From a virus (lineage: Duplodnaviria; Heunggongvirae; Uroviricota; Caudoviricetes): a stretch of DNA of 39,041 nt. The notes under the pieces are model-generated. The model was not told the origin of the DNA. It searched no databases and worked only from the letters and a program-made list of their open reading frames with translations. Numbering within the stretch: the first letter of the stretch is position 1; the number at the start of each line of letters is the position of its first letter. Below are positions 12,285 through 22,167 of this stretch, in pieces. The stretch lies in IMG/VR virus record IMGVR_UViG_2667527592_000008; one strand, given 5' to 3'. Position numbers and translations under genes: made by a program.

Positions 12285-12716
12285 TCAGAATGCACCTCCC
12301 CGCGTGGACTCACGCCCGAACTGACGGGAGCCGGAGCGGATACGCACCTGTGACGATGACGGGATCACGCTGCCGGACGTATCCCGCCCGAGGTTGATTT
12401 GTCCTGCCGCGACTTTCTCCAGAAAGCGGATGGCGTCCCGGTAGCGCATCTGAATTTCTTCTGAGCTGATACGGTAATCGGTCGCCAGGTGATAACGGGC
12501 GATATCGCAGCAGTAACCCACCAGAATCCCCGGGCTGTCAGGCCACGGGGTCCGGTAACGCCCTACCAGATAGCCATCAATCTGGGCACTGGCGCGCGCA
12601 AGCGCGGAAGCCAGTTTTTCTTCGTCGATGAATCCCGTCATGTTTTCATCCGTCAGTGTGCGCGCCTCGCGTTCACTGAACGCCATGATGAACTGTTCCG
12701 GTGTGGCGTAAGACAT
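12285..12716 (-). CDS. Mu gp36-like head completion protein (DUF1320-like)
   Basis: 143 aa ORF starting MSYATPEQF, the characteristic N-terminus of gp36/DUF1320 proteins; located after the capsid-proximal gene. Confidence 0.7.
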   Translation of the reverse strand: MSYATPEQFIMAFSEREARTLTDENMTGFIDEEKLASALARASAQIDGYLVGRYRTPWPDSPGILVGYCCDIARYHLATDYRISSEEIQMRYRDAIRFLEKVAAGQINLGRDTSGSVIPSSSQVRIRSGSRQFGRESTRGGAF

Positions 12717-12719
12717 GGG

Positions 12720-13052
12720 TTACTTCTCCTTTTTGTCCGCTTTCTGCGCTGCTTTAAGCGCAGCTGTCAGTTCCCGGACCTTCCCGCGCTCTTCTTCCAG
12801 CTGCGCCGTCAGTTCGCTGACTTTCTGGCGTTCGGCATCCAGCTGTGCGGCCAGCTCATTACCCCGGGCCGCGTCGTTCTGGCCGGACGCTTTATCGCGT
12901 TCGACCACAATCAGCATGGGGTCAGCCTTCAGCACCGCCAGCTGTTCCGGGGTGAACGCATCCGCAGGCCATGCCTTCGTGGTTGCGCTGTGTGCCACAC
13001 CGCAGCGGCGAAAACCCTCACGGCGGGCGGTAATTTCAATCACCTTTTCCAT
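12720..13052 (-). CDS. Mu gp35-position protein with C-terminal coiled coil
   Basis: 110 aa ORF directly downstream of the major capsid gene; C-terminal half is a heptad-like AQLDAERQKVSELTAQLEEERGKVRELTAALKAAQK. Confidence 0.55.
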   Translation of the reverse strand: MEKVIEITARREGFRRCGVAHSATTKAWPADAFTPEQLAVLKADPMLIVVERDKASGQNDAARGNELAAQLDAERQKVSELTAQLEEERGKVRELTAALKAAQKADKKEK

Positions 13053-16247: not shown

Positions 16248-17410
16248 GATGCCTCCGGTGTGTCCTGCATAACCCAGTCTGTCAGCACGTCATCCTCCAC
16301 CGTCGCCACTGACCAGCGGTCGCCCGACTGTAACGCATACCGCCACGCGTTACCGTCCTGCGTGACATGCTCCGCCCGTTCGATGGTTTGCTGCATCAGC
16401 ACATAGTCGGCGGCGGTCGGGGACGTGTCTGTTGCACTGAGGCGCTTCATGACGTCAGCCGTAAGGTTTACCGTCTGCCGTGCAGCGCCCGTGGCGGCGA
16501 CCTGTTCCGGTGAACGGATGGCCAGCGGATATCGCTGGCGCGCATCCAGTTCGCTGACGTTCGCCAGTCCCCGGGCAAAATCCGGCCCGGTCAGTGTGCC
16601 GGTGACATACTGGCGGGCGCTGCGGTAATCGTATTTTTCCAGTTCCGGCTGCCATGCCACTTTGCCGGGGTTAAAACCGAAGCCCGGGTCGGCGGTATAC
16701 ACGGAGCCGTCCGGCATCTTCAGCCCCATTGTTCTGATGGTCTGGCCCGGCTGGCCATATTCCTGCTCAACCTCAACCAGTCGCCCCTCGCTGCTCTGTA
16801 CCGTCAGGCCATATTTCTCCACATCCGACGCCGAACGCGCCCGGATACGGCAGCGGCAGTGATAACCGTCCGGGGGATATAAAAACGCCCAGACAGGATC
16901 ATCCGCCCGGGCGGTAAAACCGTTCAGGGCGGCGTGTTTCGGGCGGGTGTGAAGGTCCATCACTGCCACGCGCTCAAAATAAGGCCGGTCAGCCACGTTC
17001 GCCATCTGCTGCTGATAACGTCCGGCGTTATATGACGACTGAATATTGGTATCAAATATCGTGCGCAACCGGCGCGGCGTCAGTTGTCTGCCGTACAGTT
17101 CGCCGGTGTCCTCGTCCACAATCAGCCGCTTACCCAGCCAGCCTTTTTTCTCCAGCAGCGGCTCCAGTTGTGCGGCAAACTCCCGGAACGTCCCGCCGTC
17201 AGCCAGTGCCGCCGTCAGGCCATCACGGATATCCTTCAGAACATCCAGTTTCAGCACGCCCGCCACCGTGAACGCCCGGGCGTGTGCGATGTCCTTCACA
17301 TCGTGCCAGCGGAAGCCGATGACGTATCCCTTGCTTTCGAAATACTTAATCGCTTCTTCCGGCTTCAGGGTGTACGCATAACCCAGGTCAACATCGTCAA
17401 CAGTCGGCAT
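16244..17410 (-). CDS. Head morphogenesis protein (Mu F-like minor head protein)
   Basis: 388 aa ORF immediately after the portal gene, with overlapping start; Mu F position and size. Confidence 0.8.
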   Translation of the reverse strand: MPTVDDVDLGYAYTLKPEEAIKYFESKGYVIGFRWHDVKDIAHARAFTVAGVLKLDVLKDIRDGLTAALADGGTFREFAAQLEPLLEKKGWLGKRLIVDEDTGELYGRQLTPRRLRTIFDTNIQSSYNAGRYQQQMANVADRPYFERVAVMDLHTRPKHAALNGFTARADDPVWAFLYPPDGYHCRCRIRARSASDVEKYGLTVQSSEGRLVEVEQEYGQPGQTIRTMGLKMPDGSVYTADPGFGFNPGKVAWQPELEKYDYRSARQYVTGTLTGPDFARGLANVSELDARQRYPLAIRSPEQVAATGAARQTVNLTADVMKRLSATDTSPTAADYVLMQQTIERAEHVTQDGNAWRYALQSGDRWSVATVEDDVLTDWVMQDTPEAS

Positions 17411-18992
17411 TCAGTCGCCCCCAGATATCCGCCACAAAGAATGCCTGCGTCAGCAACTGCCGCAACGTTTCATCCGGCAGCTCCGGCCACGCTTCCGCCA
17501 GTACGTTCATAGCCTCGTCTGCATCCCGGCCTTCCTGTATGGCCTGCACCAGTGGGGCCACCAGTTCGTTCATCCCCTGCGCGATGGCCTCTGCCGGAAG
17601 CTCTGCCCGGTCGATGGCGTTCTGTGCCGGGTCGTCCTCCCCGTTGTCCTGCTGACTGAGTGCGGCAACATTCATCCGCTCACGCAGCTGGCTGAGGCCA
17701 GCCTGCACAGGGAGAGACTGTGCCACCGGCACCAGCACCTCTTCGCCGTCTTTCGGGGTGGGGATGCCGGTTTTTTTGCGCACCCACGACGCCGGGATAT
17801 CCTTCATCCCCACATTGTTGAGCAACACGCTGACGGCTTCCGCCACGCCCTTAATGTCAGCTTCCTGCTGCACATCAAACACCAGGCGCGGAAGACGGCG
17901 TGACGGGATATCCTGCCAGCCGTTGAGACTGGCCATCATCTGTATCAGACTGCTGAACATGCCGGACAGCTGGCGTGCATCAGCGGTCAGAATGTCGTGC
18001 CGGACCTCGTTATGGACATTACCCAGTGCGTTGGTGGAGGTTTTACCGTCGGCCTGGCTGGTCAGCGTACTGCCCAGAATCACTTTTGAGGTGGTACGCT
18101 CCGCCCATTCCACCATCGACATGAACGCCTCCGGTCCGCCGGATGCGGCTTCCTTGAACTCGATTTCGTTACCCTGCGGCAGGGCTGCCACCGCTTCATG
18201 ACCCAGATTGACCAGCGCCTCAAGAATGTTATCCCGGTCTTCGTCACTGGTGCCCTGTGCATAGTACGCAATGCGCGCTGGAAGACCGTAAATCTCCAGA
18301 AATTCCGCCATATCACGCAGCGCAAAGTTTTTAAACAGATACGGCCAGACCAGTACGCGGAACAGGCCGGATGAACCCAGGAACCCCGACCGGGCGTTGT
18401 AACGGTGAACTAGCCAGCCGAACGGCCACAATGCGGAACCGTCCTTACCGTCTTCCCCACGGTTGCCGTCATCCAGCCGGAGTTCGTCATTGTGTTCCGG
18501 CAGAGTTATGAACCAGTTATGCGGGCGCAGCGTCACCGCATCCGGTAACCATGTTTTATCCACGAACGCCCAGCTGATTTCCTGACAGCTGAAGCCGTAA
18601 CCGACACTGCTCATCCCGTTGAGGATGATGTCCTCCATGTCCGGGATGCCGTGCAGCCATTCATCCACGGCGGCGGCCAGCTCCTTTTCTGCCTTCGAGG
18701 CATTGCGGGGCGGCTCCACCGACCAGTCCAGCGTCAGCAACGCTTTTTTGCGCTTTTCCATCTCGGCGAACAGATGGCCATCACGTTCTTCCATATCCGC
18801 AAACAGCATCGCCTGCGCCGGAAGATAACCGCGTTCGGCTGCTTCCAGAATACGCGGCAGTTTTCTGATGTTCAGACCACGGGACGGGTGATCGGGATAG
18901 ATGCGCAGTCGTTCCGCCACTCTGACCGACTGCGTTGTTTTGAGTGCCTCACGTTTCAGCGGGCGTCCGTAAATATCAACAAGCTGTGCCAT
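17397..18992 (-). CDS. Portal protein (Mu gp29/H-like, DUF935 type)
   Basis: 531 aa ORF directly downstream of the large terminase gene; N-terminus MAQLVDIYGRPLKREALKTTQSVRVAERLRIYPDHP is typical of Mu-like portals. Confidence 0.9.
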   Translation of the reverse strand: MAQLVDIYGRPLKREALKTTQSVRVAERLRIYPDHPSRGLNIRKLPRILEAAERGYLPAQAMLFADMEERDGHLFAEMEKRKKALLTLDWSVEPPRNASKAEKELAAAVDEWLHGIPDMEDIILNGMSSVGYGFSCQEISWAFVDKTWLPDAVTLRPHNWFITLPEHNDELRLDDGNRGEDGKDGSALWPFGWLVHRYNARSGFLGSSGLFRVLVWPYLFKNFALRDMAEFLEIYGLPARIAYYAQGTSDEDRDNILEALVNLGHEAVAALPQGNEIEFKEAASGGPEAFMSMVEWAERTTSKVILGSTLTSQADGKTSTNALGNVHNEVRHDILTADARQLSGMFSSLIQMMASLNGWQDIPSRRLPRLVFDVQQEADIKGVAEAVSVLLNNVGMKDIPASWVRKKTGIPTPKDGEEVLVPVAQSLPVQAGLSQLRERMNVAALSQQDNGEDDPAQNAIDRAELPAEAIAQGMNELVAPLVQAIQEGRDADEAMNVLAEAWPELPDETLRQLLTQAFFVADIWGRLNADC

Positions 18993-18995
18993 TAA

Positions 18996-20693
18996 TTACC
19001 ATCCTCCTGAACCAAAACGCCCGCCACGGTCACGCCCGCTGCTGCGTGGGGTGTGTATCTGAAATTTTGCGCTGCGCGATACCGCCAGCGTCCACAGCAT
19101 GTGCAGACAGTCCGGGCCATCATCGTGGTCGGCTTTGGGGTAGTGGCGCAGCTGGTCAATCAGCGTCTGATGTGCCGGACTGATGCGGATCAGGCCGTTG
19201 GCCATATGCGGCTGAAGGGACTCAATACGCAGCGCTTTATCCTCCAGCGGGATGACCGGCAGCGCCGGAACCGGCACGCCCAGCGCCGCCGAACGCTCAA
19301 CCAGCACGGTACGCAGAAACTCCTGAAACTGGACGGACTCAAACGACCAGCACAGACAGTGGTATTCCCGCTGATACTTAATCACGTCTTCGATAAGTTT
19401 GTTTGGCAGACGTCGGCGGATATCGGCTTCAACCACATCCAGAATGCCGGTAAAGCGGTTAAAGCCCCCCACGAGAATGGCCGACGGGTCGCGGTTTTTG
19501 TTTTTCTTCCCGAGACTGGGGTCAACAGCACCATAAAACACCCATTCATCAAGACGGTTAACCCAGAACTTAATGCAGCCCGCAAACAGCGCATCTTCAC
19601 CGCTGACCGGGTCGTTCTGGTATTCAGAATCAAAGGTGTCATGACCGTCACGGACACGGATTTTCATCAGTGCCAGCAGGGGACGCGCCGCCCATGACAC
19701 CACCGACCCGGCGAGCATGTCGGCTTCGTTCTGTCGGTAAAGTGCCTCTGCTGCTTCCGGCTGTTTGTTGCGGATGAGTTCTTCCCACTCGTCCCACAGC
19801 TTCATATTGGCAGGCCACTGAATGACGGCCTTAAAACGGGCCGTTTTCCACATCGGGTTATTGAGTGTGCGCGACAGTACGGAGTCGTAATGCAGGATGG
19901 TTCCGATATAAATAATATCTGTTTTACCACCAGCCTCGCCCAGCGGCATCACGGTTTTGGTGAGCCAGTCATGCAGCTTGTCGCGCTGCTCCGGGTTACG
20001 CACCATCTCGTCGTTCTCGATGTCGTCGAGGATAACCAGGTCAGGACGGTACGGACCGTGGCGCAGACCACGCAGCTTTTTACCACTACCGGCAACGGTC
20101 ACCTTGATATTGTTGGCCGTGACGATGGTCCCCATACGCCAGACGCGACCCTGCCCGCACACTTCCGGGAAATCGTTTTTTAAACGGGGGTTAAATTCCA
20201 GTTCAGCCTTGATGGCTTCCAGCATCGGATAAGCCTGGTCGATACTGTCCATAATGATGACCGGATAATGCTTAATGGCCCGGATAATGGTCCACAGGGT
20301 AAACAACTGAGTCACCAGCGTGGATTTTGCTTCACCACGGGGCGCGGCGATGGCGTCGTTCTCCGGGTCCGGGCTTGCCACAACCTGTGGCAGACGGCTG
20401 AACAGGTATTTATGCAGCTCGCTTTTTGCCGGGTTGCGGACGTAGTGCGGGAAATAGTTTTCGACAAAATAATCGTAGCCCGTCACCGGGTCACAGACTG
20501 CCGCCCGGCGGGCCTGTGTGGCCTGCGGGTTTACATCGAACCCCAGACATTCAGCCTCGATGGTCTGGCGGAGGTTGGCGATGTACTCCTGCAGGCTTCT
20601 CTGAAACTCTTTAATGGAAAGTTTACGTTTTGCCACGTCACACCTGCGCTGCTTCTGCCTGCGCTTTTTCGATACGTGCGCAGGCGATATCAA
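18996..20693 (-). CDS. Terminase large subunit (Mu gp28-like)
   Basis: 565 aa ORF with ATPase-like and nuclease-like regions, followed by the portal gene. The ATG at 20693 overlaps the methyltransferase gene by 56 nt; an in-frame GTG at 20636, one base after the methyltransferase stop, is an alternative start. Confidence 0.9.
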   Translation of the reverse strand: MISPAHVSKKRRQKQRRCDVAKRKLSIKEFQRSLQEYIANLRQTIEAECLGFDVNPQATQARRAAVCDPVTGYDYFVENYFPHYVRNPAKSELHKYLFSRLPQVVASPDPENDAIAAPRGEAKSTLVTQLFTLWTIIRAIKHYPVIIMDSIDQAYPMLEAIKAELEFNPRLKNDFPEVCGQGRVWRMGTIVTANNIKVTVAGSGKKLRGLRHGPYRPDLVILDDIENDEMVRNPEQRDKLHDWLTKTVMPLGEAGGKTDIIYIGTILHYDSVLSRTLNNPMWKTARFKAVIQWPANMKLWDEWEELIRNKQPEAAEALYRQNEADMLAGSVVSWAARPLLALMKIRVRDGHDTFDSEYQNDPVSGEDALFAGCIKFWVNRLDEWVFYGAVDPSLGKKNKNRDPSAILVGGFNRFTGILDVVEADIRRRLPNKLIEDVIKYQREYHCLCWSFESVQFQEFLRTVLVERSAALGVPVPALPVIPLEDKALRIESLQPHMANGLIRISPAHQTLIDQLRHYPKADHDDGPDCLHMLWTLAVSRSAKFQIHTPRSSGRDRGGRFGSGGW

Positions 20694-21378
20694 AATACTG
20701 GTTAGTCATTTCAATGCCGGTAAACCGTCCGCCACGGGCAAGTACCGGGATGGCGGTGGTGCCGCTTCCCATAAACGGATCGAGAACGTGCGCATCCGGT
20801 GCCAGCGGTTTAACCAGCTCGGCCATCAGCTGAACCGGCTTTGCGGTCATGTGCAGTTTTTCGGACGGGACAACACGCTGCGTAATCACACCCGGGAACG
20901 GGCCACCGTGCGGACATTTGTCGAGTTTTCCGTTGCTGCCCCAGACCACATACTCGGCCTGATGCCGGAAATAGCCGGTGTGTGGCGCACGGGAAGCCTG
21001 CGTTTTATCCCAGACAACAAGACCACGCCACAGCACACCACCGGCCTGAAAAACGTCGGTCATGGTGGGAAGCTGTCGCCAGTCACTGAACACCATGACA
21101 TAACCACCGGGGCGCACAAGGCGGGCAGCCCCGGACATCCACAGGGTGCTCCAGTATGCCCAGCTGCGCTGGTCGCGGTTATCCCCGCTGAACTCGGCAT
21201 ACTGGGTGTGACCGACATACTTGTCCGAAGGGGCCATGCTGCGGTCTGATTTATGTGTGCCACCACTGCTGTAAGGCGGGTCGGTAATGACGGCATCAAA
21301 ACGTTCGGATAACGCCGGCAGCACATCAAGAACATCACCGCAATACAACGTTGCGTTACCAATAATCTGTTTTTGCAT
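20638..21378 (-). CDS. DNA methyltransferase, beta-class (probably N6-adenine; N4-cytosine not excluded)
   Basis: 246 aa with catalytic DPPY near the N-terminus and AdoMet-binding FMGSGTT near the C-terminus; the motif IV-before-I order defines beta-class amino-methyltransferases. No restriction endonuclease partner is adjacent. Confidence 0.85.
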   Translation of the reverse strand: MQKQIIGNATLYCGDVLDVLPALSERFDAVITDPPYSSGGTHKSDRSMAPSDKYVGHTQYAEFSGDNRDQRSWAYWSTLWMSGAARLVRPGGYVMVFSDWRQLPTMTDVFQAGGVLWRGLVVWDKTQASRAPHTGYFRHQAEYVVWGSNGKLDKCPHGGPFPGVITQRVVPSEKLHMTAKPVQLMAELVKPLAPDAHVLDPFMGSGTTAIPVLARGGRFTGIEMTNQYFDIACARIEKAQAEAAQV

Positions 21379-21424
21379 TACAAATCCCGAATATCAGACG
21401 GCCCGGAAAACCGGGCCGCTGTGG

Positions 21425-21925
21425 TTAACTGAAATTATCCTCAAGCTCTTTAGCGAAGCCTTCGAGCACCTCAAGAAACGGGGCATACTGTGCCGGGTGA
21501 CGCTCCTTGATGAACGCGCCGAGCCGCTGCACCACTTCCAGTGCCGTGGCGAGCCGGTCGGTTTCCGGCAGGATTTTTTTGCTGCTGGCCACCGCCTTAC
21601 TGAGACTGTCGGACAGACTCGCCAGCAGTTCGACGGACTCCTGCGGCGGGATGTCCGGGTTCTGGTTCAGCCGTTCAAGCGTCGTCTGACACTTCACCAC
21701 CAGACTGATAAGCACGGTGCGGGCGACACTTTCCAGTCCGTCACCGGCGAGCGCGTGAGCGGCCCGCAGCTTGTCCCAGTCGTCGCCGTTCTTCATCGCC
21801 TGCGTTTTCCAGCGCCGCGCGGTGTCGTGCGGCACGGCGAACTTCATGGCGACGATATCCAGCGGAAGCTGGTCAAAGATGTACCCGTTACGGACTTTGT
21901 CCCTGATATCCTGTGACCACGCCAT
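21425..21925 (-). CDS. Mu gp27-like protein (DUF1804-like; putative terminase small subunit)
   Basis: 166 aa ORF upstream of the methyltransferase and large terminase genes, in the Mu gp27 position. Confidence 0.5.
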   Translation of the reverse strand: MAWSQDIRDKVRNGYIFDQLPLDIVAMKFAVPHDTARRWKTQAMKNGDDWDKLRAAHALAGDGLESVARTVLISLVVKCQTTLERLNQNPDIPPQESVELLASLSDSLSKAVASSKKILPETDRLATALEVVQRLGAFIKERHPAQYAPFLEVLEGFAKELEDNFS

Positions 21926-22167
21926 TAAGTGTCCTTCTGAGCCTGTTCAATCCTGCGCTGAACTTCGTCGGGATTTTCAAGAACAAACACGTTTTTCCCG
22001 GTATCCAGTTCAATGACCGTGCCATCATGTGTACCGTACTGACGGTAAAAATGGGTGATGCGTTCAGCGAGCACCATGACAGCGCCAGCACCTCCTGAAC
22101 CTCTGTATTCTGTAAATCTGATAATGCTCACTGTGTCAGACCTTCGAAAAATCAGTTCTGTGAACAC
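21925..22167 (-). CDS. Hypothetical protein
   Basis: 80 aa ORF between the lipoprotein gene and the gp27-like gene, with overlapping start and stop; actual start uncertain. Confidence 0.4.
   Translation of the reverse strand: MFTELIFRRSDTVSIIRFTEYRGSGGAGAVMVLAERITHFYRQYGTHDGTVIELDTGKNVFVLENPDEVQRRIEQAQKDT

Follow-up and report, generated by a model that had tools for sequence, protein, structure and literature searches.

The 39,041-nucleotide (nt) stretch of tailed-phage DNA (Caudoviricetes) filed as IMG/VR record IMGVR_UViG_2667527592_000008, i.e. the window, carries a DNA methyltransferase (MTase) gene between its Mu gp27-like gene and its large terminase gene, terL. We hold with good confidence that this gene (20638..21378, minus strand) encodes a functional orphan amino MTase of the beta class, likely forming N6-methyladenine (m6A), which would be made late and serve as anti-restriction accessory cargo in a variable slot. 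The open reading frame (ORF) had been described in an earlier reading of the bare sequence (the original prediction) and was found at the same coordinates; it starts with ATG and encodes 246 amino acids (aa), the protein being RefSeq WP_021536553.1 as annotated in Escherichia coli strain Ec55. This kind of enzyme is well known, and RefSeq already labels the gene 'DNA-methyltransferase' by automatic annotation, but its position in the slot is not described in the literature searched (Mu-like prophages, E2348/69, transposable phages), in which no paper on the gene itself was found either.

The enzyme and its known counterparts

The assignment to the beta class, already made in the original prediction, was borne out by motifs, family and fold. 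Motif IV, i.e. the DPPY of the catalytic loop (residues 33-36; 21271..21282, minus strand), precedes motif I, the S-adenosylmethionine-binding FMGSGTT (residues 202-208; 20755..20775, minus strand), which is the reason for placing the enzyme in this class, and both align with the DPPY and FMGSGTT of M1.HpyAVI from Helicobacter pylori. The protein is a member of the beta-class amino family Pfam PF01555 (N6_N4_Mtase; 82.3 bits, E=6.5e-23, cut-off 26.7) and matched PHROG 67 'DNA methyltransferase' (E=1.1e-55) as well as, over the full model length, the PADLOC Type II MTase model PDLC03321 (MTase_II; 1.6e-64); judged by these sequence scores, the family match lies well beyond chance. In an alignment of 40 homologues with 54-83 % identity to the query, TDPPYSSGG and DPFMGS are invariant and the stretch between them is strongly conserved; degenerate catalytic motifs were looked for in this alignment and are not the case. 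An AlphaFold (AF2) model built from the same alignment reached a mean predicted local distance difference test score (pLDDT) of 84 and a predicted template modelling score (pTM) of 0.84, with low confidence only in the loops around residues 40-70 and 129-134. The model has the Rossmann-like fold of solved beta-class enzymes, and its top Foldseek matches were M1.HpyAVI, CcrM and M.BceJIV, joined by TTHA0409, MboIIA and RsrI (probability 1.00).

The gene is under purifying selection: when it was compared with its Yersinia orthologue, the ratio of non-synonymous to synonymous substitution rates (dN/dS) was 0.047, and for the orthologue of Serratia it was 0.08, synonymous sites being near saturation. 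In agreement with the claim that the enzyme is an orphan, no gene annotated as a nuclease occurs anywhere in the prophage, and both flanking genes are phage genes abutting the MTase gene. The loss of the gene from roughly a third of the sibling prophages (see below) and the Type II label of the top PADLOC model could also point to a decaying or inactive remnant, or to a cryptic restriction-modification or defence system of which only the MTase half was recognised. This is extremely improbable, given that the motifs for catalysis and cofactor binding are intact and invariant throughout, that dN/dS is 0.05-0.1 and that the ORF is full length in every MTase-plus locus examined. Moreover, three small neighbouring ORFs had no PADLOC match, and the two abutting genes, both identified as phage genes, leave no room for a partner. 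We regard the antisense ORFs over the gene, such as that of 211 aa at 20614..21249 on the plus strand, as shadow ORFs of the MTase frame.

Regarding the chemistry, PF01555 takes in both N6-adenine and N4-cytosine enzymes, and the N4-cytosine structures 8s9m/8s9o and 1boo were among the significant matches, so that an N4-cytosine MTase with the same biology was considered as well. We regard this as unlikely. N4-cytosine enzymes usually have SPPY or SPPF in motif IV. Adenine is the likelier target, since the family keeps its DPPY without exception and the top matches, in sequence as in structure (M1.HpyAVI, CcrM and M.BceJIV), are all adenine enzymes; homologues are also labelled adenine-specific by the Joint Genome Institute (JGI), an automatic assignment.

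M1.HpyAVI (PDB 5hfj/5hek) was the best match both by sequence (E=5e-15 over MTase residues 24-236) and by structure (Foldseek E about 2e-14, TMt 0.77-0.81). At 232 aa it is similarly small, has the same motif order and likewise lacks a separate target-recognition domain. Compact beta-class enzymes of this sort are thought to read DNA by disordered loops and not by a separate domain, and the loops around residues 40-70 and 129-134 of the prophage MTase may play this role. Identity is, however, only about 22-24 %, a distance at which specificity is not transferable, and M1.HpyAVI stands in a bacterial restriction-modification context, whereas the prophage MTase is phage-borne and an orphan.

Closer in lifestyle are several MTases of mobile elements. 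Hia5, Hin1523 and Nma1821 are non-specific adenine MTases that take the place of mom in Mu-like prophages and protect against many restriction enzymes (Drozdz et al. 2012, PMC3299994). They are not homologous to the present enzyme at the level of the family, and they share with the present enzyme that they are orphan adenine MTases of Mu-like prophages without mom, thought to be broadly protective. Hia5 is, however, Dam-related, with its DPPY at about residue 191-194 instead of residue 33 (beta order), and genes of its type occupy the place of mom, at the right end of the prophage, and not the interval between gp27 and terL. Membership in the Hia5/Hin1523 family was therefore rejected on class and position, the MTase being set apart by the family features described in PMC3299994, and the relaxed specificity of the Hia5-type enzymes need not apply to it. 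Mom and Com of Mu provide an analogous role, i.e. late adenine modification of phage DNA against restriction, but Mom is an unrelated protein with acetamido-adenine chemistry, another location and a Com regulator.

M.EcoGII and M.EcoGI are likewise beta-class, prophage-borne orphans, non-specific and silent in the lysogen (PMC5778455); they are about 100 residues longer than the MTase and have a central target-recognition domain. The M.EcoGII family (~349 aa) was rejected, as a BLASTP comparison with the 352-aa homologue from phage 1720a-02 aligned motif regions only (34 %/56 aa; 38 %/32 aa). M.EcoGIX and M.BceJIII (PRK13699; PMC7736820), compact beta-class orphan anti-restriction MTases on mobile elements, aligned over the full length with about 27 % identity (E about 1e-17). 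They differ in being plasmid leading-region genes whose products are specific for single-stranded DNA and recognise SAY, and the PRK13699/M.EcoGIX family (NCBIfam NF010253) was rejected at 75.6 bits against a cut-off of 244. CcrM (NCBIfam NF050803) was rejected as well, since the score of 56.1 bits lies below the cut-off of 830 and only the C-terminal motif region is matched.

Of the same family as the prophage MTase are Bpm of the Bordetella phage BPP-1 and the MTases of P2-like E. coli elements (e.g. Chuche), with 52-55 % identity over about 94 % of the length; for these no characterisation was found in the literature searched. They too are orphan cargo of temperate phages, but in other slots, i.e. 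behind cro in BPP-1 and, in the P2-likes, behind ogr at the end of the prophage, and in Chuche and strain 2015C-3121 a com gene lies upstream of the MTase, which the Mu-like copy lacks. In being an orphan on a mobile element, the MTase works like these known enzymes.

Presence, absence and age of the gene in Mu-like prophages

A Mu-like prophage of E. coli Ec55 matches the region at 99.9-100 % identity, and a prophage of the enteropathogenic E. coli strain E2348/69 matches it at 98.3 %. The Ec55 prophage has genes for a transposase, a MuB-like ATPase, Mor and GemA, besides head and tail genes of the Mu type. It interrupts ypdF, of which two pseudogene fragments are left, one at each end (prophage comparison at about 33842..35526 of the window, 34847-36531 of locus L002 and 6223-6594 of L006). 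Its annotation, taken as a whole, contains no mom, com, gin or invertible gin segment, and the tail-fibre gene is the last one. A sibling prophage has yigF and rarD as its neighbours, and a 200-kb plasmid of E. albertii bears a copy of the MTase gene with 97.6 % identity; the different insertion sites and the plasmid copy fit active transposition. A megablast search of 50,697 phage records with the 3.2-kb region gave no match, i.e. none of these isolated phages is close in DNA, and the best protein match among phages is 55 % identical. None of the enzymes listed in an E. coli O111 methylome paper corresponds to a Mu-like prophage MTase, and papers on Shewanella, Mannheimia, Chania and Salmonella contained nothing that bears on the gene.

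A comparison with related Mu-like prophages, as the original prediction had proposed, showed that near-identical prophages do differ in whether they carry the gene. With >=95 % identity in the flanks, the prophage lineage occurs in 55 records of complete E. coli genomes; the MTase gene is present in 35 of them and absent from about 20, and the IMG/VR loci comprise 13 with and 7 without it. MTase-minus siblings are nevertheless 99.4 % identical to the window in DUF1804, i.e. the gp27-like protein, 99.1 % in TerL and 98.3 % in the portal protein. One MTase-minus prophage examined in full was complete, had no other MTase and occupied a different chromosomal site. The MTase is dispensable for the prophage, since it is present or absent among otherwise near-identical prophages.

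The segment confined to MTase-plus prophages spans 743 nt (20647..21389, minus strand), in place of which the minus siblings carry the 7 nt TG[C/T]ATAC, and the DUF1804-terL gap in the IMG/VR loci accordingly measures 792 nt in the plus and 56 nt in the minus forms. The junction is identical in all MTase-minus loci examined, indicating that the loss was a single event. The E. coli minus loci keep CAGGTGTGAC before the terL GTG, i.e. exactly the last two MTase codons and the stop, whereas a distant Trabulsiella prophage, also without the MTase, has a different terL ribosome-binding site, CAGGGGTAATTGTG. Because the minus loci retain the last 10 nt of the MTase gene while the Trabulsiella site differs, it is likely, though not proven, that the E. 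coli minus form descends from the plus form and that the junction is a deletion scar; on this reading, a single deletion would have removed the gene from many siblings. The 7-nt filler at the junction is not accounted for by the plus sequence of the window, which weakens the inferred direction of change.

Two alleles of the MTase gene occur in otherwise 99 % identical E. coli prophages (the window compared with L034, L036, L043 and others). They differ by 16 substitutions in a patch of codons 64-110 (21049..21189 of the window), which spans helix 70-85 and strand 88-98 of the AF2 model. The rate of synonymous substitution (dS) is 0.885 inside the patch versus 0.078 in the rest of the gene, indicating a recombination import from a diverged homologue, for which no donor was present among the 120 homologues retrieved.

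The original prediction had called the gene an insert to which Mu has no counterpart. Mu indeed lacks a gene at this position, since its gp27 (12316..12891) is followed after 7 nt by gp28 (12899..) with nothing between, but an insert in the sense of a recent arrival it is not. Orthologues occupy the same slot, with the same junction of stop, 1 nt and GTG, in Mu-like prophages of Yersinia enterocolitica (83 %) and Serratia (77 %), whose flanking proteins have diverged similarly, i.e. 85 and 74 % identity for DUF1804, 91 and 90 % for TerL and 77 and 73 % for the portal protein, respectively. The GC content of the gene (57 %) matches its flanks. The same slot across genera, the flank-like divergence and the matching GC content together make the MTase a long-standing resident of this lineage, and the low dN/dS a selected one.

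Beyond this lineage, at least 5,972 database proteins match the MTase at E <=1e-20; mycobacteriophages carry homologues with 46 % identity. In Mu-like prophages of Salmonella enterica (L010-L012, 4001-4753), a 62 % identical homologue lies between the holin and endolysin genes; the DUF1804-terL gap of these prophages contains three small unrelated ORFs. Homologues in P2-like prophages are located after ogr and in some cases behind a Com-family regulator gene, Burkholderia P2-like phages also carry the family, and the homologue of Bordetella phage BPP-1 is located after cro. A 55 % identical homologue is found in a P2-like E. coli prophage (L015, 3838-4771) and in phage Chuche (L001, 8778-9720). 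In both, a Com-family zinc-finger gene overlaps the 5' side of the MTase gene, giving a com-plus-MTase module analogous to com-mom of Mu, whereas no com-like gene lies beside the Mu-like copy.

The slot between gp27 and terL

The placement between the gp27-like and the large terminase genes, as originally predicted, was confirmed by Pfam and PHROG matches of both neighbours. Upstream lies the DUF1804 gene, encoding the small-terminase-like counterpart of Mu gp27 (21425..21925, minus strand; PF08822 1.8e-52, PHROG 756 1.8e-67), and downstream terL (18996..20636, minus strand; PHROG 38 3e-143), followed by the Mu-type portal gene (17397..18992; Portal_Mu 2e-95). The MTase stop codon TGA (20640..20638) is separated by one base from the terL start GTG (20636..20634), a spacing noted in the original prediction and consistent with RefSeq/PGAP, which uses the same GTG.

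To see how this slot is used elsewhere, loci containing DUF1804 were collected from genomes and IMG/VR with a four-sequence DUF1804 alignment, from which Mu gp27 was left out as too divergent. In the 91 loci (L020-L110), the distance from DUF1804 to terL ranges from -12 (overlap) to about 1568 nt, and the cargo comprises opposite-strand DUF4145 proteins, one DUF6527 protein, membrane and lipoprotein genes, a recurrent 68-73-aa protein ('MADKLI...') and several proteins without a family. Examples within the interval are found at 5030-5821 of L075 and 4978-5985 of L069 (both minus strand), and at 4707-5036 of L072, 5037-5393 of L070 and 1297-1518 of L022 (all plus strand). DUF4145 we take to be common in restriction and abortive-infection genes. 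In L052, a relative from IMG/VR, an extra gene for a 99-aa putative lipoprotein (1914-2213) lies between DUF1804 and the MTase, i.e. cargo genes can share the slot. Mu-like phages thus have a general cargo hotspot at their gp27-terL junction.

These data bear on the suggestion, raised in the original prediction, that the enzyme marks DNA for packaging. Methylation could serve as a signal for the phage's own packaging or for late regulation, with the adjacency to the terminase being functional: the gene sits between the gp27-like gene and terL with stop and start one base apart, the arrangement is conserved across three genera, and P1 offers a precedent, as cleavage of its pac site by the pacase requires Dam methylation (established knowledge, as cited within PMC5005818). 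We nevertheless consider this very unlikely and disfavour the suggestion. The MTase-minus siblings have near-identical DUF1804 and TerL proteins, and one of them, inserted at another site, is full length; the slot is empty in Mu and in most phages with DUF1804; the Salmonella Mu-like homologue lies in the lysis cassette instead; and in other phages the slot carries unrelated cargo. The position beside terL is better explained by a junction that tolerates insertions within the late transcript. Most likely, the MTase is an ordinary accessory gene, lost without harm by sibling prophages, and no part of the packaging machinery.

The proposed late transcription and role

At the junction with terL, the minus strand reads ...CAG GTG TGA C GTG GCA..., of which CAGGTGTGACGTG (20634..20646) comprises the last two MTase codons, the TGA stop, one base and the terL GTG. 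The AGGTG within the last two MTase codons (20641..20645) is the likely Shine-Dalgarno sequence of terL, and Yersinia, Serratia and L052 share the junction in the form CAGGTGT[G/A]ACGTG. Because of the 1-nt spacing between stop and start and the position of this Shine-Dalgarno sequence, translation of the MTase and terL is probably coupled, with ribosomes that finish the MTase stopping one base before the terL GTG.

A scan for promoters and terminators found no sigma-70-like promoter and no intrinsic terminator between the MTase and the lysis/gp27/terL operon. Just after the DUF1804 stop there is a GC-rich hairpin with a GGCCCGG-TTTT-CCGGGCC core (21395..21421, minus strand; -28 kcal/mol, z = -3.75), which has no T-run and was not called by the terminator scan, i.e. 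it is no classical terminator. It is kept in E. coli with or without the MTase, as well as in Yersinia, Trabulsiella and L052, and could be an mRNA stability or processing element. In L052 it directly precedes the MTase gene, behind the extra gene. An ORF of 80 aa just upstream of DUF1804 (21925..22167, minus strand) matches PHROG 7691 (unknown function; E=3e-48); since its RefSeq lengths in sibling prophages are 50, 68 and 106 aa, its start codon is uncertain.

From this context we infer late expression of the MTase. The gene would have no promoter of its own and would be read from a late transcript in the order lysis genes, gp27-like gene, MTase, terL and portal gene; by analogy with Mu, it would be silent in the lysogen and its product made only in lytic growth. 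Replicated phage DNA could then be methylated shortly before packaging, and the methylated progeny DNA would resist restriction enzymes of the next host. An anti-restriction role is most likely. In a prophage without mom and com, the MTase would fill the role played by Mom in Mu and by Hia5/Hin1523 in FluMu-type prophages.

It might also be argued that the MTase serves the lysogen through the host chromosome, either as an epigenetic regulator or as protection against a restriction system in the same cell. The gene is found widely across E. coli lineages, and orphan MTases can be regulators (general knowledge; discussed in PMC7736820). Such a benefit is highly improbable in view of a gene that is co-oriented with and embedded in the late lysis/packaging operon and has no promoter-like site of its own, whereas lysogen-expressed cargo in the same slot is typically on the opposite strand. 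Related prophage MTases, e.g. M.EcoGII, are moreover silent in lysogens (PMC5778455).

Some points weigh against the anti-restriction m6A enzyme as we propose it. The DPPY favours adenine but is also compatible with N4-cytosine, and N4-cytosine enzymes (A. vaga N4CMT and M.PvuII) do appear among the structural matches, albeit with weaker scores. The late promoter was not located, Mu-type late promoters requiring an activator and being invisible to a sigma-70 scan. The target motif is not inferable, the closest characterised relatives reaching about 27 % identity, and one site-specific MTase protects against few restriction enzymes, which makes the size of the benefit uncertain.

A broader benefit would result if the MTase were an m6A enzyme with a short motif or relaxed specificity, acting as a general anti-restriction shield. 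The family is compact and unusually conserved (46 % between E. coli prophage and mycobacteriophage) and has no separate recognition domain, which is the basis for this reading; we consider it unlikely. If true, the MTase would be a third independent replacement of Mom in Mu-like phages, after Hia5 and the M.EcoGII-type enzymes, and might serve as a footprinting reagent.

Whatever its specificity, the near-isogenic MTase-plus and MTase-minus prophages in sequenced E. coli strains amount to a natural experiment, in which the share of one orphan MTase in host range and restriction evasion is directly measurable. The gp27-terL junction, in turn, is worth searching for genes of defence and counter-defence.

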